In this document: positions 7,380 through 63,387 of the stretch, piece after piece
Layout: each line of letters starts with the position of its first letter
How positions within the stretch are numbered: the stretch's first letter is position 1
DNA from: a virus
Taxonomy: Duplodnaviria > Caudoviricetes
Virus record (IMG/VR): IMGVR_UViG_3300029305_001557
Location: 1-64,000 of that record
DNA: 64,000 nucleotides
Strand: one strand, 5' to 3'
Notes under the pieces: model-generated
Database searches by the model: none
What the model was told of the DNA's origin: nothing
What the model saw: only the letters and a program-made list of their open reading frames with translations
Position numbers and translations under genes: made by a program

Positions 7380-9470
7380 TTAGTCTTCATCTAAATTCTG
7401 ATAGCGTTCATTTTTCTTGCCGACTTCTTCAGCTTCGACTTCAATTATATCCTCTTTCTTTGGAGGGTCTTCTTGGGTCATATTACCGAAAAGTCTTTCA
7501 AGAATACCGCCACTTTGGGGGTTAGTGATTGAAGTGGTCTGCTCTTCAGAACCGTCTGCTCTGATAATTCGAGTCTGTCTGAGGACTTCAGGACTACCAA
7601 ACTCATACATCTGTTTCAACATCTGCATATAGCGAATATTGGTGTCCATAAGCTGTGTCGTAACAGGGTCAATAGTACCGTTCATTACTTCCATAACCAT
7701 AGCTCTTTGCATACGAGCCATATTATGCTCTACGATACCTTGTACGGCTTGAATAATATCAGCCATATCTCTCGTGTCAAAGCGGTTAAACATATCGTTA
7801 TAGGCACAGACATATCCTGCTTTATATTCAGGGCATTTCTGAGCCGCATAACAAGTGTCACAAGCATACTTCGGATATTTCTTAGAGTATACCTTTTTAG
7901 GCTTTCTGACAGCTTTCTGACCCTTGACAAACAAGCCCTTTTCATCAAACACAGGAACAATATCAGCTTTACGATAAATCTCCTCATCGAGCTTATCAAT
8001 CTCAGGAGCAGACTCCTCGTCTTTCGGGGAGGGAATTAGCCCTGCGAGTTTTAATCTCATCTCTTCAGGAGTTAAATCTACAAGCTCTTCCTCAGTGTCA
8101 TCAATATAGTGGTCACGCTCTTTAACAATACGGTCAAAATTAGTTCCCAAATGCAGTAGCTTATCGTTGCTACCTGACAAACACTCTCTAAAGAACGCTG
8201 TAAGGTCTGCGATTTTTTCTTGCTGAGACCCAACAATACGGTTGACATACATATCGTGAAGACCGTCAATAATCTCTTGGGAATAGTTCTGCCTTAAAGG
8301 AAGATACTCAGGGTCATTCCAATTAAGAAATACGGTCATATCACTTAAAGTATTAGCAAGCTCCTCTACAGGAAGCTCAGGATTGATGTTCATACTCCGA
8401 GCGTACTCTTTCATACTATCGGGGTCGGGTGAACTCTGAAACCAACGAATTGAGGGGAAGAAGTCTTCAGGAAGGTTATCCACATCTACTTTAACAGCTC
8501 GGGCTTTGAACCAATACATAAGAGACTTTAATCTCTCGTGGATAAACTTCTCTGCCTGAACAAACGCATAAGCATTGACCCTTATCATCTCTGTCTTATC
8601 TTCCTCACGAATGAGGTCAAAGTCAAATTTCAGGTCATACTTACTTATTAAAGGAAATGCCTTAGTCTCAAATTCGGTCTTCTTCACTCGGGTCATCTTA
8701 GTACCCGTCCACACGGAAATTTCTCCATACTTCAAACCAACATTCCAAGTAGTAGAGTCAACGGTGTAGAAAGGGTACTGAGTGAGCATACCTGTTCTTG
8801 TAGAAGCCATACCTTGAATAAGGGTATTGTACTTCTCCGCTATCTTAAATTTATTTCTTAACTCAGTCTCATCAATATTACCGTCCACATTCAAAGAAAT
8901 GCCAACATAGGGATAACGCTTACACATATATTCCCATTGGTCAAGTCCTTCTTCGTGGTATATAAAGCATACAGGTATTCCTGTTTCAAGCATAAACGGC
9001 TCAAAGTACTTCTTTCTCCACTCATAGACTTTCTCATTACCTACAAGATACTGTAAGTCAAGGTCAGCAATAGCAAAGATAGAGTCCTTATGCTTTCTCG
9101 CCCAATTAAGATACTCGTGTATCTGTTGCTCCCACTGCTCTACAGTGTAGCTTTCAAATTCGGGGTTAGTAATATAGGTATAAGCACCTGAGTCAATAAA
9201 CAAGTGCATATCGGGGTACTTCTTTATCTGTCCGTAACCTTTACCTTTCAAGTACTCATAAGACATCAGGAAATTTCTGATACCTAAATTGTACAGAATA
9301 TCAAGGTAGGACTCATACTCAACACCTGAATAAAAGATAGACAAGGGACGAGTATAGTCCATTACTTGTCTTAAATCAGTATACTTACGCTCCGTAGAGG
9401 TGGGAGTAAAAGAAGTCTCGGTCTGCATTTCCATATCAGGAAGCTTTACTCGCTTTACTTTGATACTCAT
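7380..9470 (-). CDS. dpdA: DpdA-like DNA 7-deazaguanine transglycosylase (TGT fold) with a long helical and Cys4 C-terminal extension
   Basis: LFIDSGAYT, AIADLD, PVCFIYH and YPFYTVDSTTW are TGT/DpdA-type motifs; adjacent to folE in a queC/E/D cluster; CDTC-x5-C-x8-C near the C-terminus. Confidence 0.78.
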   Translation of the reverse strand: MSIKVKRVKLPDMEMQTETSFTPTSTERKYTDLRQVMDYTRPLSIFYSGVEYESYLDILYNLGIRNFLMSYEYLKGKGYGQIKKYPDMHLFIDSGAYTYITNPEFESYTVEQWEQQIHEYLNWARKHKDSIFAIADLDLQYLVGNEKVYEWRKKYFEPFMLETGIPVCFIYHEEGLDQWEYMCKRYPYVGISLNVDGNIDETELRNKFKIAEKYNTLIQGMASTRTGMLTQYPFYTVDSTTWNVGLKYGEISVWTGTKMTRVKKTEFETKAFPLISKYDLKFDFDLIREEDKTEMIRVNAYAFVQAEKFIHERLKSLMYWFKARAVKVDVDNLPEDFFPSIRWFQSSPDPDSMKEYARSMNINPELPVEELANTLSDMTVFLNWNDPEYLPLRQNYSQEIIDGLHDMYVNRIVGSQQEKIADLTAFFRECLSGSNDKLLHLGTNFDRIVKERDHYIDDTEEELVDLTPEEMRLKLAGLIPSPKDEESAPEIDKLDEEIYRKADIVPVFDEKGLFVKGQKAVRKPKKVYSKKYPKYACDTCYAAQKCPEYKAGYVCAYNDMFNRFDTRDMADIIQAVQGIVEHNMARMQRAMVMEVMNGTIDPVTTQLMDTNIRYMQMLKQMYEFGSPEVLRQTRIIRADGSEEQTTSITNPQSGGILERLFGNMTQEDPPKKEDIIEVEAEEVGKKNERYQNLDED

Positions 9471-9991
9471 GTTTCACCTCCATACTCATACACTGTCGTG
9501 GTCTTACAAGGACTCTTAGCTCCTCTGATAGATACGCAGGTATGTGTTGCTACCATTCGTACACTTAAATATTCAGGGTCAATAACAGAAACAAGATACT
9601 CCCCAATTTCTGTAGTAAGTCTCTCCTGTAACTGTGGCTTCTTAGAGAAATAGTCAACTACTCTCGGGATTTTAGAAAGCCCGATAATTTTGTCTTTCGG
9701 GACATAAGTAACGACTACATTTCCCATAAAGGGAAGCCAATGGTGTTCACACGAACTGTTTACAGGTACTTCCACAGAGACAGGATTGTGATTTTCGGCA
9801 GGAAAGACCTTCATCTTAGCATTAAGCTCATTGAGGTGTCTGTTATTCCTGTTTCTAAATAACTCATTACAGTACATTTTCGCAACCCTGAGAGGAGTAT
9901 CTTTATTACTTTCTGTAATAGGAAGTCCAAGCAGGGAGGAAATAGCACTGATATGTCCTGCAATCTCTTTGATTAAATCTTTATCAGTCAC
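9467..9991 (-). CDS. folE: GTP cyclohydrolase I
   Basis: KDTPLRVAKMY, SSCEHHWLPF, IIGLSKIPRVVDYFSKKPQLQERLT, HTCVSIRG. Confidence 0.96.
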   Translation of the reverse strand: MTDKDLIKEIAGHISAISSLLGLPITESNKDTPLRVAKMYCNELFRNRNNRHLNELNAKMKVFPAENHNPVSVEVPVNSSCEHHWLPFMGNVVVTYVPKDKIIGLSKIPRVVDYFSKKPQLQERLTTEIGEYLVSVIDPEYLSVRMVATHTCVSIRGAKSPCKTTTVYEYGGET

Positions 9992-10660: not shown

Positions 10661-11428
10661 TTATTGAAATAAATTATTTTTAGGAAATTTCACACCTAAA
10701 TCTGTGAGTAAAGGGTCTTGCATATTGACAAGAGCGAACCCTTCTGCTCTACCTATACACGAGCTACAGTGGCAACAAGGAACATCTCCATTATTAAAAC
10801 ACGACCAACTCAGACTCATATTAGCCCCAACTTCAAGTCCTAACGAAATAATCTCGGGCTTTGATTTACTCATCAAGGGGGTAAGCACAGTAAACTTTCC
10901 GTTTAAGTGGTGCTTCATAACTGAACCCTCAGTTAAAGACTTAGCTACGGACTCTGCAAAGCGTGGGTGGGTGTCTACAAAACCGTCACGAGGTTTACCC
11001 AAAATGTTTTGACTACCATTTAGTCCTGTACAGATATATTTTATTTGTAAAGACTCAGCTAAAGACCCTGCTAAACCTAAAAGAATGTGGTTTCTTAAAG
11101 GGATATAGCTTTCGGGGTCTACAACTCCTCTTTTAATCTCTTCTACCCCTGTACTTCTAACTTCTCCTCCAACAATGGGGAGAGTCTTCAGCCAAGGAAG
11201 GTCAATACTAACACGGATAAGTTTGTGACCATAAAGGTCAGACATCTCTTGTGACATAGCCCATTCTTTTTCAAGAGCAGACTGTCCGTAGTCTACAAAG
11301 AGTTCTGTCACTTCAAATCCCGCCCAATGTAGTAATGCGTCACATACACAGGAGTCAAGACCTCCGCTTTGTAGTAGCACTACTTTCTTGTCGGGAAGAG
11401 CTTTGTATTTCTGCAATCTCTTCTCCAT
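10661..11428 (-). CDS. queC: 7-cyano-7-deazaguanine (preQ0) synthase
   Basis: VVLLQSGGLDS, VDYGQ, YIPLRNHIL, SWSCF, C(C)HCSSCIGR; no glutamine amidotransferase domain. Confidence 0.95.
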   Translation of the reverse strand: MEKRLQKYKALPDKKVVLLQSGGLDSCVCDALLHWAGFEVTELFVDYGQSALEKEWAMSQEMSDLYGHKLIRVSIDLPWLKTLPIVGGEVRSTGVEEIKRGVVDPESYIPLRNHILLGLAGSLAESLQIKYICTGLNGSQNILGKPRDGFVDTHPRFAESVAKSLTEGSVMKHHLNGKFTVLTPLMSKSKPEIISLGLEVGANMSLSWSCFNNGDVPCCHCSSCIGRAEGFALVNMQDPLLTDLGVKFPKNNLFQ

Positions 11429-12100: not shown

Positions 12101-12739
12101 CTACTTCACTCCTATACATTTGTGCATTTGAATTTGAACCCTCGCATAGTAAAACTTGTCTTTAATAAGCCAATCAATTAACTGCTGTCCTATCATCGGC
12201 TTTCCTTTCTTGTCAAACATAGGGCTAAAAAGGATTTTTGCAGAAGTCGGATAAGACCGTAAAATTCTCTTTGCAAATTTATAGTCTTCCTCGTCTGCAA
12301 TGACAAACTTTACTTCATCGTGGGGCATTAAATTGCCGAGGTTGGTGAGGATATTTTTATCACTAACACCACTACTCGGGCATTTAATATCCATAACATA
12401 TTTATAGCTTCGGTTATAGCTACAGGGTTCTATAGGGACACAGCCGTTAGTTTCGATAGACACTTTGTACCCCTCACCTACAAGCTCGTAAATGACAGGG
12501 TAAACATCATCTTGAATTAAAGGCTCACCACCTGTAATACACACATAGGGGACACGGTATCTCTTTATCATCTGAATAAGGTTGCCGATAGATACCCTCT
12601 TGCGATTACAAGCTTTCTGAGGTTGGTCACAGTAGGTACATTTTACATTACACCCAAACAGTCTAACAAACACACAAGGGAGTCCTGCGTCAGTACTTTC
12701 TCCTTGTATGCTTACAAAGATTTCATCTAAGTATAACAT
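12101..12739 (-). CDS. queE: 7-carboxy-7-deazaguanine synthase (radical SAM)
   Basis: EIFVSIQGE, VFVRLFGCNVKCTYCD, ITGGEP, IETNG, DIKCPSSG; start set by the GGAGGTG RBS. Confidence 0.95.
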   Translation of the reverse strand: MLYLDEIFVSIQGESTDAGLPCVFVRLFGCNVKCTYCDQPQKACNRKRVSIGNLIQMIKRYRVPYVCITGGEPLIQDDVYPVIYELVGEGYKVSIETNGCVPIEPCSYNRSYKYVMDIKCPSSGVSDKNILTNLGNLMPHDEVKFVIADEEDYKFAKRILRSYPTSAKILFSPMFDKKGKPMIGQQLIDWLIKDKFYYARVQIQMHKCIGVK

Positions 12740-12743
12740 AAAC

Positions 12744-13106
12744 TCACCTCCTACATTCTGCAAAAGAACTTTCTGTCTCCCACAGTTTGACGGACTCTAA
12801 GGTAAGTCCCATATTAGAAAACTTATGGCTTAATTCTCTAAAAAAGCTCTGCACCATATTTTCTGCGGTAGGCTTCTTAAAGAAGTCATTGAGGTATTGG
12901 TGGTCATACCTGTTTACAATCTGCTCATTTACAACAGTCTTCAGAACTCCAAAGTCTACTATCATACCTGACATCTCATCAACAGAACCACTGACTGTTA
13001 CCTGTAATTTATATGAATGACCGTGAAGTCTATTACAAGCACCCTCATAATCAGGCAAGTGATGTGCCGCTTCAAAACCAAAGCATTTAGTAACGCTTAC
13101 TTTCAT
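12744..13106 (-). CDS. queD: 6-carboxy-5,6,7,8-tetrahydropterin synthase
   Basis: FEAAHHL...CNRLHGHSY...DFG...DHQYLN...PTAEN...LWET. Confidence 0.96.
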   Translation of the reverse strand: MKVSVTKCFGFEAAHHLPDYEGACNRLHGHSYKLQVTVSGSVDEMSGMIVDFGVLKTVVNEQIVNRYDHQYLNDFFKKPTAENMVQSFFRELSHKFSNMGLTLESVKLWETESSFAECRR

Positions 13107-56350: not shown

Positions 56351-57886
56351 TTATTCTGCTCCTCCATTTTGACCTGTAGTCTCTACTCTGACTTGCTCAA
56401 TAGAGGTCTGACCGTTAGTCATACCACTGTTTAACTGAGCGTCATTGGGGTAGTGTCTCGGGTCATTGGGGTCAGAGTGACCATAGAAACAGGGGTTCTT
56501 TTCTAAGTCTGTGTCAATCTCAGTTAAAAGAGTATCAATATTTTCTTTGCCTACTCTCTTAGCCGCATTTTTACGAGACTCAATACCCATTTTCATTTCT
56601 TGCTGAATTTGCTGTAACTCTAACAGCATATCCTTCGGTAAGGTATCAGGAATAGAACACTCATTGTAGTAGAAATCCCTGTTAGTGACATCAGCAGGTT
56701 TTGTGATAAGTCCTTCCAATAAAGACACTAAAAGGACTAACTTATTCACTTCTTCAAGACCGTTCTCGGTGTTCATTCTCTTCACCCTCGTCTTTTCAAT
56801 AAGGGGTAAATTGATATACTGTAGAGCAACACCACTTGTGTTACTAATTGCTTGTGCTCCACCTAATACGGTCTCAGGCACACCACCTACTTCACACATC
56901 TGAAGCTTCAGATTTGCAATATGGGACTGACTTGCTCCTAAGTCACCTTTTAATTCAAGGTTCTCAACACGAGCGTCTTTTGCAAGACCACCCCACATCT
57001 TATTAGCACCTTTTTCAAGATTACCAACCTTAGCACCGTATACAATAGTAATCGGGGCGGCGTGATAGTCAATAATCTCCGATACATTAGACTCTTTAAG
57101 ATTTAACTCCACATTAAGAGGAATGATGTCATCGAGGTCACTGAAGCCCTCATTTCTTCCTGCAATAGTTAAATTCTTAATAAGGACAAAGGGAATAATT
57201 CCGTACTTATTCGGGAACTTCTCTTCTTTACCGTCATCTATGACTACGCACTCGTCATCAGTCCAAATCTGTTTATAAAGAACTTGCTTCTTAGTACTTC
57301 TGCCTAAGATACCTGTACGCACGATTTTCTCATAAGAGTACATAATTGTGACCCTTGTAAGACGGTCTCTGTCGTGAGGGTCAAACTCAGGGAATATCAC
57401 ACTTGACGGAATGAGCATAATTCTAACTCGTCCTTGTGGGTACTCATTGTAGGGGTCTCTCAACTCTGAGGGCTTAAAGTAGCGTACTTGTAACCACGCT
57501 TCACCTGTTACAGACTTCATCTGACCTAAATCAGTAGTAAGCTTGTATTGGTCGTTGTCTTCCCACACATCTTCAAGATACTCAAAAGCTGTTCTTCCGT
57601 CAGGGGTAATAGTAGCTTTCTCCATAGCTTTATGTGTAGACATAGTAAAAGACTTACCTAACTCAAATGCAACAAACTTATTTACAAAAGTTCGGCAGTA
57701 GTTAATAGTAAGTTCAGGGGTGTCCTGTTCGGGCATTTCTTCCCAATGGTAGCCCTCATAGAAGTTCCACGCTCTCTTCATTCTCTTCAAGCGTTCTATT
57801 TGCTTATTATCAAGCTCACCTTGAACTCCTATAAGGCTCGTATTAAAATAATCGTCAAAGTCTCTGCGTCTTTCAAAACCAATCAT
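56351..57886 (-). CDS. Portal protein (SPP1 gp6-like)
   Basis: WNFYEG, INYC, G.IPFV.I.N, SDLDDIIPL, SGVAL. Confidence 0.9.
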   Translation of the reverse strand: MIGFERRRDFDDYFNTSLIGVQGELDNKQIERLKRMKRAWNFYEGYHWEEMPEQDTPELTINYCRTFVNKFVAFELGKSFTMSTHKAMEKATITPDGRTAFEYLEDVWEDNDQYKLTTDLGQMKSVTGEAWLQVRYFKPSELRDPYNEYPQGRVRIMLIPSSVIFPEFDPHDRDRLTRVTIMYSYEKIVRTGILGRSTKKQVLYKQIWTDDECVVIDDGKEEKFPNKYGIIPFVLIKNLTIAGRNEGFSDLDDIIPLNVELNLKESNVSEIIDYHAAPITIVYGAKVGNLEKGANKMWGGLAKDARVENLELKGDLGASQSHIANLKLQMCEVGGVPETVLGGAQAISNTSGVALQYINLPLIEKTRVKRMNTENGLEEVNKLVLLVSLLEGLITKPADVTNRDFYYNECSIPDTLPKDMLLELQQIQQEMKMGIESRKNAAKRVGKENIDTLLTEIDTDLEKNPCFYGHSDPNDPRHYPNDAQLNSGMTNGQTSIEQVRVETTGQNGGAE

Positions 57887-57891
57887 TTACA

Positions 57892-59583
57892 TTACCTCCT
57901 TCTACTTGTTAATCTATTTCTTCTGCTATAATACCGCTTTTCGTTATTCGACTTCTCTGTAAATTTGTTTCTGTTGGTCTCTGTGTTATTTACTTCCCCG
58001 GCAAAACTGCAACCCCAAACAGCTAAAGCCCACGAGTCAGGGTAGTCATCGTGTGCCCCTCTTTCTTCAGGGTGACATACAACAAGGTTAGTGCCACTAT
58101 AGCCTTTCTGTAAATCCCCTAACTGCTGTAAGAAGTCATTATATTCTTTAGTAGCACGAGTCTTGTCCCCTGCACAGACTCTTGCTCTACCTGCCGCAAT
58201 TTCTTTTTCAAGGTGCTTATATAACTCCGACTTAGATTTAGTTGTAAAGATATAAGGAATAACCTCACACTTCAAATTAGCTCTAAGTCTATGAGAAATA
58301 GAAGCTTCCCTTGTTGCGTCACATACTACTCGAACAACCCAAAACATAGATAAATAATCTACAATTAAAGGGTACTGCTCCTCATAGTCAGGCTCATTAC
58401 TTATGCACAGCCAATCTTTTATATAAGTATTATAAGCCATATAGGTCACTTCTTCGCCTGTTTCATCATCAATTCGAGTCTCCATAATAACAGGCATATT
58501 CCAATCGACTTCACACATCGTAACTACAGTACTGTCATTCTTACCGCCAATATCAATACCTGCAATGTGAGTAGCTTGTCGGTCAGACATAACTCTTTCA
58601 AGACTTGTTTCTCCGTTTGCTTCTTCAAACTTGACTATATCAACGAACATACCACGCTCGATTATCCATTCAAGCTTGTAAGACATACGGAACTCATCAG
58701 AGTTTTCGCCAAGTCTCTTCTTTTCGCCCTCAACATACTTAGCGTACTTAGGGTTATACTTAGAAGCCACCGTATAGTCATACTCAAAATGGTTTCTAAT
58801 ATGAGAAGCCCTCATCTCAATCTCTCGTTTATTTCTCTGTATAGCGTCATAGAAATCGCCCTTAAAAGTCGTTGCTGTACCTATCTTAATGATAGAAGCA
58901 TTGTAAGCCGCACCCATAGGGTGAATAGACTTTCTAATCTTAAAGTTACTGATGTCCTGACACTCTTCACAGATAATAAGCTTAAAGGACTCACCCTCGA
59001 TATTACTACCGTCACTCGCTGAAATAGCTGTGGCAAAAGAACCATTCGTAAGAGCAACGGTCTGTCCGTTAGAGGTGCTAAACTCTAATCGGAACTCAGG
59101 GTCACTAAGTACCTCAATAGCGGTTTTACACTGCAATCGTGCTTTTAGTCTTCCGTAAGTTATCTGTGCTTGTCGTTGTGACGGAGCAAATATACCAACC
59201 CACAAACCGTCCTTAAACATTGTGAGTCTCGGGTCATCTGCAAACATCGGCATATTTGCAAGGACAGGAAGAATAATCATCATACCGCCGACTGTGATAG
59301 CGATAGTCTCTGATTTTCCTGACTGACGAGCAAATAGAGCTGTTATCTCAGCACCGTCATTCATCAACACGGAACGAATAACACGCTTTGAAAACTGCTC
59401 CTGATACGGAAACATTGTTCGTCCTGAGTATAACTCACAGAAGTTAAAAATGCGATTTACTAATTCAGTGGTAGGGACTCTCCCTGCGTCAGCTTTTCTT
59501 ACAAAAAGGTCTTTTACATAACTCCATAACAACAATAATAGCAACTTTATATCCAACAGTAAACCACTAAAACTCAAACGCAA
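57892..59583 (-). CDS. terL: Terminase large subunit
   Basis: YQE, RQSGKSET Walker A, ICEECQD Walker B-like, GIDIG, HDDYPDS. Confidence 0.92.
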   Translation of the reverse strand: MRLSFSGLLLDIKLLLLLLWSYVKDLFVRKADAGRVPTTELVNRIFNFCELYSGRTMFPYQEQFSKRVIRSVLMNDGAEITALFARQSGKSETIAITVGGMMIILPVLANMPMFADDPRLTMFKDGLWVGIFAPSQRQAQITYGRLKARLQCKTAIEVLSDPEFRLEFSTSNGQTVALTNGSFATAISASDGSNIEGESFKLIICEECQDISNFKIRKSIHPMGAAYNASIIKIGTATTFKGDFYDAIQRNKREIEMRASHIRNHFEYDYTVASKYNPKYAKYVEGEKKRLGENSDEFRMSYKLEWIIERGMFVDIVKFEEANGETSLERVMSDRQATHIAGIDIGGKNDSTVVTMCEVDWNMPVIMETRIDDETGEEVTYMAYNTYIKDWLCISNEPDYEEQYPLIVDYLSMFWVVRVVCDATREASISHRLRANLKCEVIPYIFTTKSKSELYKHLEKEIAAGRARVCAGDKTRATKEYNDFLQQLGDLQKGYSGTNLVVCHPEERGAHDDYPDSWALAVWGCSFAGEVNNTETNRNKFTEKSNNEKRYYSRRNRLTSRRR

Positions 59584-59679: not shown

Positions 59680-61419
59680 TCAGTCCGAAATGTGGTCTTT
59701 ATAAGTACACTCGGTAGGAGCTTTATCCTCTCTTATACGCAAGAAACGAGGGTGTCTGAGCTTTCCTGTGTCTTTGAATATCTCATTTGCTTTGACTTCA
59801 ATGACTTTTCCAATCCACGATTTTGGGTCTTCACTGAACATCTTTCGAGTCTCTTCATCAAAGCCACTACACTCACCTACTTCAAGGACAAGTACATCAT
59901 CTCCTTCAAGTATCATCTCCTCAATATTAAATTTCTTGTTCTTGGGGAGCTTCATCATCTCTTCAGGAGTGATTGTAACACCGAAACGGATAGTCCCTAC
60001 CCACCCATAACAGTAAAACTTAGAGACAGGTCTGCACTCTTCAGGATACCAATTCTTCGCAAACTGCTTACGCTGTTCAGGAGTATACCCTGACAGGTCT
60101 ACAAGGTCTCGCTCAGTAGTCTCCCAATAGTCCCACTTATCTACAGTCGGGAACTTACCCTTATACTCATCAGTCGGGTCTTCAAACCCCATAATGACTA
60201 CTTCTCGGGTTAAATACTTCTTTATCTTCTGATACTCTCGCCCACGCTTATGAAAATACTTTCCGTCATTGGGCTTTATCATAACACCCTCACCACCTGT
60301 AGCTACGATATACTCATAAAAAGCTCGGGGAGACAAATGCACTCTTCCTGTGTCTTCTTTATACTCAGCATACAAATGAGGGTAAGACTCGGCTCTGCCG
60401 GACTCTTCAAGACTTCTGCTTATTGTATAAGGAGTACCGTGAGTATCGTGATAAGGAGTGGTATCAATAAGACCTCCACAGGTCTGAGAGTCTACATACT
60501 TTACATACTCACTATTGAGTTTATCCACCACAATCTTCAGGTACACTTTTCTACGACTTAACGGCATTTTTCTGAGGTCAATACCCTTAAAGAAAAGAAT
60601 ATCGAAAGCGTGGAAAACAATATACCCAAGTTCTAACTGACGGTCAATAGCTTTATCCCACTTACAATTCAAAGTACTTGACACATCTTTGAAAGGTCTA
60701 TGAGGAATAAACATCTCTCCGTCAAGTATTGTTCCTGCAAGCTCAGGAACATTAAGCCCTCGCAACTGAGGTAAAGAGTCTGTATTCTCACAATACCATT
60801 TTGTCTTCTCACTTACTCTACGACTAAAGCAACGAGTATACCCTTTCTGTGGATAGTACTCTCCCGACTCAATCATCTGAGCAATTCTATCGGCAATATT
60901 TGACCAAGTATACAACTTATGCTGTCCGTTATCATACTCAATCTCATACCCTTTAGCATTGAACATAATATGTCCTTTGGTCTTATCAGGGTACAGAGCA
61001 GTTCCTCCACCAATTCCGTACTCTTTCTTCAAGAACTCAACTCTCTCCGAAACGGAACTATGTGAGATAAAGAACTCATAAATACGATGATAACCTCCGT
61101 GAGTATTACTGCCCGACTGAAGAGTGCTTCTAAGTAAGTATTCTTCTCGGCTCAGGTCTCTCTTAGACACCTTGTTAGGAGCTAAGAAATAAAGTAAAGC
61201 ACGAGTTCCGTCAAATTTCTCTTCGACTACATAAGAGCTATCGTTCAGAAAAGCGTCCTGCTGTTCTTCAGTCTCAATCTCTTTTGCAGTCATTGGAGCA
61301 TACCCTTTTAAGCCCACACGCTCATACATATCTGCTGAGGTGTAATGCTCAAAATGTGGAATAAAAATATGCTCCAAGTCTGTATCATAAAAGGAAGAGT
61401 CTTTTTTAACTATCTGCAT
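59680..61419 (-). CDS. ATP-dependent DNA ligase with an inserted domain of about 95 aa
   Basis: EEKFDG (motif I), ILDGE, FDIL, EGVMIK, KIK, LRHPRF.RIREDK. Confidence 0.93.
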   Translation of the reverse strand: MQIVKKDSSFYDTDLEHIFIPHFEHYTSADMYERVGLKGYAPMTAKEIETEEQQDAFLNDSSYVVEEKFDGTRALLYFLAPNKVSKRDLSREEYLLRSTLQSGSNTHGGYHRIYEFFISHSSVSERVEFLKKEYGIGGGTALYPDKTKGHIMFNAKGYEIEYDNGQHKLYTWSNIADRIAQMIESGEYYPQKGYTRCFSRRVSEKTKWYCENTDSLPQLRGLNVPELAGTILDGEMFIPHRPFKDVSSTLNCKWDKAIDRQLELGYIVFHAFDILFFKGIDLRKMPLSRRKVYLKIVVDKLNSEYVKYVDSQTCGGLIDTTPYHDTHGTPYTISRSLEESGRAESYPHLYAEYKEDTGRVHLSPRAFYEYIVATGGEGVMIKPNDGKYFHKRGREYQKIKKYLTREVVIMGFEDPTDEYKGKFPTVDKWDYWETTERDLVDLSGYTPEQRKQFAKNWYPEECRPVSKFYCYGWVGTIRFGVTITPEEMMKLPKNKKFNIEEMILEGDDVLVLEVGECSGFDEETRKMFSEDPKSWIGKVIEVKANEIFKDTGKLRHPRFLRIREDKAPTECTYKDHISD

Positions 61420-61753
61420 TGCTATCCTCCTCAGCATTTAGGGCTTTCACTGCTCCACTTGTTTTGACGGTACGAGTCACAAGCAACTCTTCAAGCCACT
61501 TAGCTGTTGCTTCATATAACTTCCCATTCTTAGGGTCTGCGGACATTCTCTTGTAATAAGAAATTGCCCTCTCCAAAGTGATAATCTTTAGGGTAGAGTC
61601 TTCTTGTACTGTAGCAGGAGACTCTTCACTGCCTTGTTCTTCAAGCTGTTTTAAGCGTATCATATCCCCCTGCTGTCTCTTGGGTTTATGTGTAATGTCT
61701 TGAACAGGAAAATTTGCTACACCTGCAACAGTAGTATTATTATAATCTTTCAT
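61406..61753 (-). CDS. Hypothetical protein (115 aa)
   Basis: Coupled ORF. Confidence 0.7.
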   Translation of the reverse strand: MKDYNNTTVAGVANFPVQDITHKPKRQQGDMIRLKQLEEQGSEESPATVQEDSTLKIITLERAISYYKRMSADPKNGKLYEATAKWLEELLVTRTVKTSGAVKALNAEEDSNADS

Positions 61754-62376: not shown

Positions 62377-63387
62377 TTATTCTTCTGCTTCGTACTCTTC
62401 TCCGCAATGTTCACAAATGAACATCTTGGTGTCCTCAGAGTAGTTAAGAACACGACCACAGCAAGCAGGTTCACCGTTCAAGGAGTAAGCTCCCTCTTCA
62501 ATGAGGTCGCCCTCGTCATCAACAAGTCTGCACACTGCGTCAATGTAAGTGTCGAGCAAGTCCTCATCAGACATATCACTCATATCGTCCTCAGTGTCGT
62601 AGAAAGACTGCAAGAACTCAACAAGGTCATCACGAGTCACATCACCCTTGCTAAACTGCTCACGGATTTCTTCGTCCTGAGCAAGAATAGCTTTCTTACG
62701 AGCTTCCGTCATAGCAGGATTGTCAATGTCGTTGGTGTTATCTTCTTCCTCTTCATCGGAGTCTTCAACAGGAGCTTCCTTAGCTACAGGAGCTTCAGCA
62801 ACTTCAGTCTCTTCCTCTTCGTCTTCATCATCAAAATCAAGAAGACCGTCTCTTACTGCCTGTACAACTTTTTCAATCAAAGCTTCACGCTTACCCTTTG
62901 CAGAGAGTCCGATGTCAACAAGTACATCAGCAATCTCCTCGTTGGTCATATCGGCAACTGCGTCTACAACCTTAGCATAAATGGGGTCGTTGTTCTTTTC
63001 GTCAACAGGAACTTCCTCGGGGGCTTCATTCTCAGCGGTTGCGGTCTCATCAGGAGTACAACCGAGAATACGATTTGTAATCTCTTCACGATTACCCACT
63101 GCGGAAATACCCATATCTTTTGCAAGCTTCTTAATGTTGTTGTAGGTCATACCGTCAAGCTGTTCACGAGTAACAGCAGGTACTTCCTTCACTTCATTTG
63201 CTGTAGGAGCTTCGGCAACAGTCTCTTCAGCCTGAATAGCTTTGCGTCTCTGCACACTCTTGCTCTCTACCTCGTTCTGCGTGGGAGTAGAAACAGTCTC
63301 AACAGACTGCTCATCTGCATAACCTTCAAGAATAAGGTCAATTCCTCCTCGTACAGCTTTAAGTCCTTCGATAATTTTTGCGTTCAT
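62377..63387 (-). CDS. Very acidic protein with SAP/HeH (Rho-N-like) repeats and a C-terminal Zn ribbon
   Basis: MTYNNIKKLAKDMGI..G.REEI; MTNEEIADVLVDIGL..G.REALIE; CC...CEHC. Confidence 0.8.
   Translation of the reverse strand: MNAKIIEGLKAVRGGIDLILEGYADEQSVETVSTPTQNEVESKSVQRRKAIQAEETVAEAPTANEVKEVPAVTREQLDGMTYNNIKKLAKDMGISAVGNREEITNRILGCTPDETATAENEAPEEVPVDEKNNDPIYAKVVDAVADMTNEEIADVLVDIGLSAKGKREALIEKVVQAVRDGLLDFDDEDEEEETEVAEAPVAKEAPVEDSDEEEEDNTNDIDNPAMTEARKKAILAQDEEIREQFSKGDVTRDDLVEFLQSFYDTEDDMSDMSDEDLLDTYIDAVCRLVDDEGDLIEEGAYSLNGEPACCGRVLNYSEDTKMFICEHCGEEYEAEE

Follow-up and report, generated by a model that had tools for sequence, protein, structure and literature searches.

In the 64,000-nucleotide stretch of DNA analysed here (positions 1 to 64,000 of IMG/VR virus record IMGVR_UViG_3300029305_001557; hereafter the window), the open reading frame (ORF) at 7380–9470 encodes a 696-residue protein (P0001) in which a DpdA-type transglycosylase barrel is followed by about 370 further residues that end in a distinct, separately occurring module. 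The gene lies on the minus strand, as do all window features given below, inside a cluster of genes for the 7-deazaguanine precursor preQ0, and the record from which the window is taken is a complete virus genome of 76,395 bp. Relatives of the module stand as separate genes directly before terL, the gene for the large terminase subunit (TerL), in other phages. We put it at even odds that the small terminase subunit (TerS) of this lineage has the module as its core, linked and here fused to DpdA.

The protein matched the PHROGs family phrog_887, labelled 'queuine tRNA-ribosyltransferase', over residues 39–674 (E 1e-54) and faintly matched phrog_6902, labelled 'terminase small subunit', over residues 529–612 (E 0.007). 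Pfam and NCBIfam searches with the whole protein gave sub-threshold noise only (best DDE_Tnp_1_6, E 0.019), a PDB sequence search returned no match, and megablast against a phage collection likewise found nothing. An AlphaFold2 (AF2) model of the full protein, built on 28 homologues, had a predicted local distance difference test score (pLDDT) of about 90 over residues 40–440. Foldseek of this model against the PDB retrieved tRNA-guanine transglycosylases (TGTs), with 91 TGT chains at E ≤ 1e-3 and a best match at E 2.9e-5 (TMt 0.52). By the model and the Foldseek matches, the window protein contains a TGT-type TIM-barrel fold, which together with the family alignment and phrog_887 we place at residues 39–325 (8496–9356).

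Three aspartates, D93 (in DSGA), D138 and D238 (in VDSTTW), are invariant across 28 family members. They follow the same order as the invariant active-site aspartates of bacterial DpdA, which in S. Montevideo are D95, D130 and D256 (PMC10164549), and as judged without superposition the two sets would correspond one to one. The product of the window gene is most likely a DpdA with its catalytic site intact, and so a guanine transglycosylase acting on DNA. TGT/DpdA motifs followed by about 370 extra residues are the layout that a preliminary description of the gene, made from the DNA letters, had given. The canonical CXCX2CX22H structural Zn site, said to be conserved in the DpdA family and in TGTs of known structure (PMC10164549), is absent from the window protein: residues 184–536 hold one cysteine, C430, and the sole cysteine cluster is a CX2CX5CX8C motif at 537–555. 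In the family alignment, the window DpdA subfamily is without the CXCX2CX22H site. Between barrel and module lie a middle helical domain (residues ~330–440, pLDDT 86–94) and an acidic linker (440–503, net charge −11), together at 7971–8495 and delimited from the AF2 model and composition; both are restricted to fused proteins.

The module opens with a basic arm, residues 504–536 (7863–7961; FDEKGLFVKGQ...KPKKVYSKKYPKY, net charge +8), defined from the family alignment and composition, and stand-alone module proteins have similar K/R-rich stretches ahead of their four-cysteine (Cys4) site. The arm runs into the CX2CX5CX8C knuckle formed by C537, C540, C546 and C555 (7806–7862), a presumed Zn site identified by alignment and AF2, whose four cysteines are invariant in 65 module sequences. 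After the knuckle, AF2 predicts a long antiparallel helical hairpin of helices 569–597 and 602–624 (residues 569–624, 7599–7766, pLDDT 92–97) and a beta hairpin at residues ~629–649 (7524–7586) with strands at ~629–636 and 642–649. A GGILERLFG motif at residues 654–662 (7485–7511), recognised in the alignments and a short helix in the AF2 model, precedes an acidic, low-confidence C-terminal tail (residues 663–696, 7383–7484, net charge −7). These elements, from the small Cys4 knuckle to a disordered, acidic tail, follow one another in a second AF2 model covering residues 485–696, made from 65 diverse sequences (mean pLDDT 76, hairpin 92–97). Alignment and models thus agree with the preliminary description, which had listed a metal-type cysteine site, two long helices, a beta stretch, the GGILERLFG motif and an acidic tail. 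The window protein carries the module signature P-x3-C-x2-C-x5-C-P-x7-C followed by a helical hairpin of about 55 residues with R...R...E; invariant residues in the family alignment are P533, the four cysteines, R567, R586 and E594, and the window ORF reaches 217 bits with the module-family profile. At the C-terminal motif, fused and stand-alone forms conserve G-I-L-x-x-L-F-G, and terL-adjacent forms have IIGxLFG.

An HNH endonuclease identity for the Cys4 site was considered and rejected, since neither His nor Asn is conserved anywhere in the module. The preliminary description had also offered, as an alternative to a terminase role, that the cysteines form a redox or Fe–S centre that chemically extends the inserted base. 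Four invariant cysteines would suit such a centre, but their small knuckle adjoins a coiled hairpin, no further residues of a catalytic type are conserved, the module is present in genomes without 7-deazaguanine genes, and no radical-SAM or ferredoxin family matched it; we regard this alternative as very improbable.

The module belongs to no Pfam family and has no solved relative. No TerS-like fold emerged from a Foldseek search with the module, a check that the preliminary description had proposed, the best PDB match having an E value of 0.3. A wide fold search with VIA-align gave generic alpha hairpins only (Z ~9), and neither the single sequence nor two module profiles had a specific match among solved structures. 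Foldseek of the module against BFVD retrieved TerS-annotated proteins of Gordonia phage Jumbo (E 6e-4) and Vibrio phage VAP7 (E 0.01). Family scans found no helix-turn-helix (HTH) family in the window protein or in the stand-alone module proteins; what lies ahead of the module is the DpdA barrel with the basic arm in the former and a K/R-rich disordered N terminus in the latter.

Searching 1.8 billion cluster representatives by phmmer with residues 331–696 as query yielded 339 hits, and among the best 150 of these about 48 had a DpdA barrel and about 95 did not. Many of the barrel-free hits are complete proteins of 150–470 residues with the module behind a K/R-rich disordered N terminus, and barrel-free module proteins fall into no Pfam family and hit phrog_887 in its C-terminal part only. 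The fused form occurs in the window phage, Bacillus phage BCD7 and Streptomyces phage BRock. The module is a mobile, separable unit.

That the module would exist as a stand-alone gene beside terL in other phages, as the preliminary description had suggested checking, proved correct in two unrelated groups, one metagenomic and one in Gordonia phages. The metagenomic group, which we sampled as L028, L029, one JGI contig and eight IMG/VR loci (L032–L039), comprises module proteins of 273–290 residues (P0204-like and P0249-like) encoded 0–1.1 kb upstream of terL, with none to three small, non-conserved ORFs in the interval. The gene order at L028 is ligase, an 81-residue ORF, module, a 91-residue ORF, TerL and portal, and at L039 the end of the module gene and the start of terL share 4 nt. 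This group has TerL, portal and major capsid proteins homologous to those of the window phage; TerL is 37% identical to the window TerL (E 7e-101) and is recognised by TerL hidden Markov models (HMMs) at E 1e-147 to 1e-172. No DpdA barrel was found within 8 kb upstream of these modules, nor any DpdA elsewhere on their contigs, which as fragments (16–43% complete) say nothing about the rest of the genomes. Many homologues of the window TerL (P0311 and P0406–P0410; L034, L035 and L039) are 716–947 residues long and are interrupted or carry intein/Hint and LAGLIDADG-type domains; the window TerL (561–563 residues) has no insertion of either type.

The second group consists of Gordonia phages Woes (gp6), Lizzo and Monty (gp9), in which the late operon begins with the gene for a 465-residue module-bearing protein, and this gene overlaps terL. 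Residues 290–390 of this protein hold the same CX2CX5CX8C site and hairpin (HMM score 40.5 bits; hhalign probability 95.5%, E 1.4e-8). The protein is phrog_6902, phrog_16015 shares the same region, and PHROGs labels both families 'terminase small subunit'. The TerS name of the Gordonia proteins is positional, and the GILxxLFG motif of the window protein is absent from them. The complete Gordonia genomes contained no other DpdA-like sequence and no QueC, and the module therefore works there without an encoded preQ0 pathway.

Unlike the corresponding part of the window protein, the N-terminal 285 residues of the Gordonia proteins are not recognisably DpdA: an HMM search for the DpdA barrel found no match in the N-domain of gp6, and hhalign of the whole alignments of gp6 and the window family aligned the module alone. 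Local hhalign of residues 1–285 of Woes gp6 (L019:4922–6319) to the DpdA barrel gave a weak colinear match (E 0.0014, probability 17.6%, 193 columns) in which the DSG and DST positions are altered. TIM-barrel-like clusters were reached from the gp6 N-domain in the ESM Atlas at 0.80, a value inside the noise range. The sequence of this domain may be that of a decayed transglycosylase.

Docking peptides typically combine a brief conserved motif, preceded by a flexible segment, with a disordered acidic tail, as the module does, and the module gene adjoins packaging genes in some phages. Both points would suit a module that is an address tag, whose GILxxLFG motif and tail dock DpdA on the portal, the procapsid or a replication or packaging factor and so concentrate it at phage DNA or pack it into the virion, the module not being a terminase itself. 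Conservation, however, spans about 130 folded residues, beyond the extent of a peptide, and in the Gordonia proteins the Cys4 site and the hairpin persist without GILxxLFG. We consider an address tag improbable.

Module copy number is exactly one in all six genomes for which it was counted, namely the window genome and five related ones with fused or split forms, four of the six being 92–100% complete. As the preliminary description had stated, a ligase and not a TerS gene lies directly upstream of the window terL (phrog_114, 96-bp gap). The ORFs further upstream matched no TerS family. The separate terS that the description had named as evidence to the contrary was not detected by TerS signatures in the complete genome: the Pfam families Terminase_2, Terminase_4 and GP3_package had no match in the 76 kb, and 14 ORFs of no assigned function, located in the final 12 kb or upstream of the ligase, had no TerS family match in PHROGs or Pfam scans. 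By its position at or overlapping terL, its single copy and the order of its elements (the last by general knowledge of small terminases), the module behaves like a TerS core. The TerS-like identity that the description had proposed is thus favoured by position, element order and the lack of any other TerS signature, and disfavoured by the lack of a match to a solved TerS in sequence or fold.

Several further relatives carry module and enzyme as two genes. At L003, L005, L009, L010 and L017 a free module gene (P0197-like) lies 0.8–6 kb downstream of a gene for a short DpdA of 367–420 residues, on the same strand, often with FolE, QueE and QueD close by. In two such genomes (G001 and G003), QueC and QueF are what precedes terL. 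At L023:838–3267 on the plus strand (IMGVR_UViG_3300020577_012390; G001), one 809-residue frame joins a QueF-like domain, with the motifs CLCPxTGQPDF and ESKSLKLY, to TerL, and a QueC-like ORF lies just upstream; at L026:270–1432, in another relative, QueC and a separate 162-residue QueF abut TerL. Genes for 7-deazaguanine synthesis therefore occupy the pre-terL slot in these split relatives. The module gene thus tends to accompany DpdA in phages that have the enzyme, and in such phages other genes take the slot before terL: the ligase in the window phage, QueC and QueF in G001 and G003.

These split loci bear on a different reading, in which the module is an accessory of DpdA: an oligomerising, DNA-gripping Zn/coiled-coil domain that would let the enzyme work on duplex DNA, a part that falls to a separate ATPase, DpdB, in the case of bacterial DpdA. 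The relatives beside terL would then be a reused DNA-binding module, and the true TerS would be an unassigned small ORF, of which there are some near terL. Bacterial DpdA does require a helper protein (PMC10164549). The module stays with dpdA in both fused and split forms, in the order DpdA then module on one strand at the five loci named above, and the window gene lies inside the preQ0 cluster, distant from terL; the subfamily is without the structural Zn site, a loss for which an extra Zn module might make up. Set against an accessory role are the complete Gordonia genomes, where the module overlaps terL without a recognisable DpdA barrel or QueC, and the relatives with homologous TerL, portal and capsid that place the module directly before terL with no DpdA in the 8 kb upstream. 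The single module copy per genome and the absence of a TerS family elsewhere in the window genome also argue against it. Overall we think an accessory role unlikely, if a serious contender.

A number of observations weigh against the favoured identification of the module as a TerS core. The window gene does not occupy the TerS-type position upstream of or overlapping terL, which is that of the stand-alone homologues (L028, L032–L039) and of Gordonia gp6 and gp9; it lies 48 kb from terL (26 kb the other way round), amid early or middle nucleotide-metabolism genes. The split-form module gene is likewise 13 kb (G001) and 19 kb (G003) from terL where this was measured, and five of the six split loci have it 0.8–6 kb downstream of a short dpdA, so that these loci fit a partner of DpdA at least as well. 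Two unassigned ORFs upstream of the window ligase, and four unassigned small ORFs between ligase and terL in BCD7, could each include an unrecognised TerS. No solved TerS matched the module by profile or fold, the structural matches being generic helical hairpins, and the similarity of the window module to TerS families is limited to ones named from position, namely phrog_6902 (E 7e-4 to 7e-3) and the Jumbo protein (BFVD E 6e-4). In GenBank the Gordonia protein is mostly labelled hypothetical, and in some records terminase small subunit. The support for a TerS role is positional, and that role is, for the module family, a prediction. A complex prediction of module residues 529–696 with the window TerL, run without controls, gave no verdict (0.07 and 0.04 against a mark of 0.32) and counts neither for nor against docking; the AF2 monomer models have a hairpin and strands compatible with the helical core of a TerS ring (8–12 subunits).

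The domain anatomy, homology, gene positions and copy number are established, and from them we infer how a TerS-like module joined to DpdA might act through metal binding, oligomerisation and docking on TerL. DpdA would most likely insert preQ0 made by the adjacent FolE, QueD, QueE and QueC. The hairpin and strands may mediate oligomerisation and the C-terminal motif may dock a partner, with the DpdA barrel and basic arm replacing the usual HTH DNA-binding head. In that case the fusion protein would serve as the small terminase, or else it would link the modifying enzyme to the packaging-initiation complex. Since the module is fused to DpdA here and is a separate gene in the TerS slot elsewhere, modification and packaging may be joined in one protein.

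The most explicit form of this proposal is that the DpdA-module protein itself forms a TerS ring with active barrels that recognises the concatemer and passes it to TerL, so that 7-deazaguanine insertion and the initiation of packaging are physically coupled; we hold this to be possible but less likely than not. The placing or fusion of queC and queF at terL in other 7-deazaguanine phages would fit such a ring, as would actinophage TerS proteins, whose DNA-recognition head may be a barrel that has been kept in decayed form. Base exchange during translocation, on the other hand, would probably be kinetically hard, which tells against the coupling.

The genes around dpdA make up the preQ0 cluster. 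FolE (GTP cyclohydrolase I; 9467–9991, phrog_2197, E 9e-46), whose 3′ end overlaps the start of dpdA, QueC (10661–11428, phrog_1550, E 2e-38), QueE (12101–12763, phrog_2076, E 7e-36) and a QueD-like protein (12744–13106), which matches the QueD region of BCD7 (tblastn E 1e-23 to gp028), are encoded directly upstream, and the same order recurs in at least ten related loci. At the other end of the window, TerL (57892–59583) was assigned by phrog_2, by 56% identity to BCD7 TerL and by PF03237 on its cluster. The portal gene (56351–57886, phrog_64, E 1e-44) and the capsid gene lie downstream of terL, and the slot directly upstream is occupied by the gene for an ATP-dependent DNA ligase (59680–61437, phrog_114, E 2e-36). 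Compared with the BCD7 ligase, this protein has about 200 extra N-terminal residues, which gave weak matches only (phrog_38613; Zincin-like, E 0.003). Three genes upstream of the ligase, 62377–63387 encodes a 336-residue protein with SAP DNA-binding motifs (E 2e-6), a weak C-terminal Zn-ribbon match and no PHROG family, a candidate for a DNA-binding role that could include packaging. The first and last ~37 bases of the 76,395-bp record (1–40 and 76358–76395) repeat each other; IMG/VR classes them as direct terminal repeats, but the likeliest explanation is an overlap left by circular assembly.

No part of the phage packaging motor is less conserved, or more often goes unidentified, than the small terminase, and a family defined by a Cys4 knuckle and a hairpin seems to occupy the TerS position in several lineages of phages. 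Its fusion to, or travel with, a 7-deazaguanine transglycosylase suggests that anti-restriction modification could be directed through the packaging apparatus, which would bear on how DpdA tells phage from host DNA and on the differing modification levels among DpdA subfamilies. Were the ring proposal true, it would establish a new TerS family, marked by a Zn knuckle, and a new means of aiming modification at DNA about to be packaged. For annotation there is a more immediate consequence. Stand-alone module proteins, terL-adjacent ones included, match only positions ~330–480 of phrog_887, and automatic annotation would therefore mislabel them 'queuine tRNA-ribosyltransferase'; annotators should take phrog_887 matches limited to this range as marking the module, not the enzyme.

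Solved TerS proteins (P22 gp3, Sf6 gp1, SF6/SPP1 G1P and T4-type gp16) oligomerise through a core of helical hairpins; their C-terminal strands build a barrel within the ring, and a flexible tail at the C terminus makes contact with TerL. In the AF2 module model the elements come in the same order, a likeness with no fold match behind it, but the module is without an N-terminal HTH and the window gene is away from terL. To our knowledge, a Cys4 knuckle is not a feature of any solved TerS protein.

With phage DpdA1–4 (PMC6884629, PMC10516641) and bacterial DpdA (PMC10164549) the window protein shares the TGT barrel, three invariant aspartates and folE, queD, queE and queC as neighbours, whereas its ~370 extra C-terminal residues, its lack of the CXCX2CX22H Zn site and its escape from the Pfam TGT and NCBIfam models set it apart. 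These three papers describe no terminase-related extension and do not include BCD7, and a full-text literature search combining DpdA with terminase terms found no such extension or fusion. The closest cultured relative is BCD7 gp021 (YP_007005872, 757 residues, 'queuine tRNA-ribosyltransferase'), from a phage whose cultured host is B. cereus. The two phages differ in that four small ORFs separate ligase and terL in BCD7, whereas the ligase abuts terL in the window. Like the window phage, BCD7 has no annotated TerS, and the TerL proteins of the two are 56% identical; gp021 has the same three-part architecture as the window protein, is 37% identical to it over residues 42–674 and lies in the same preQ0 cluster.

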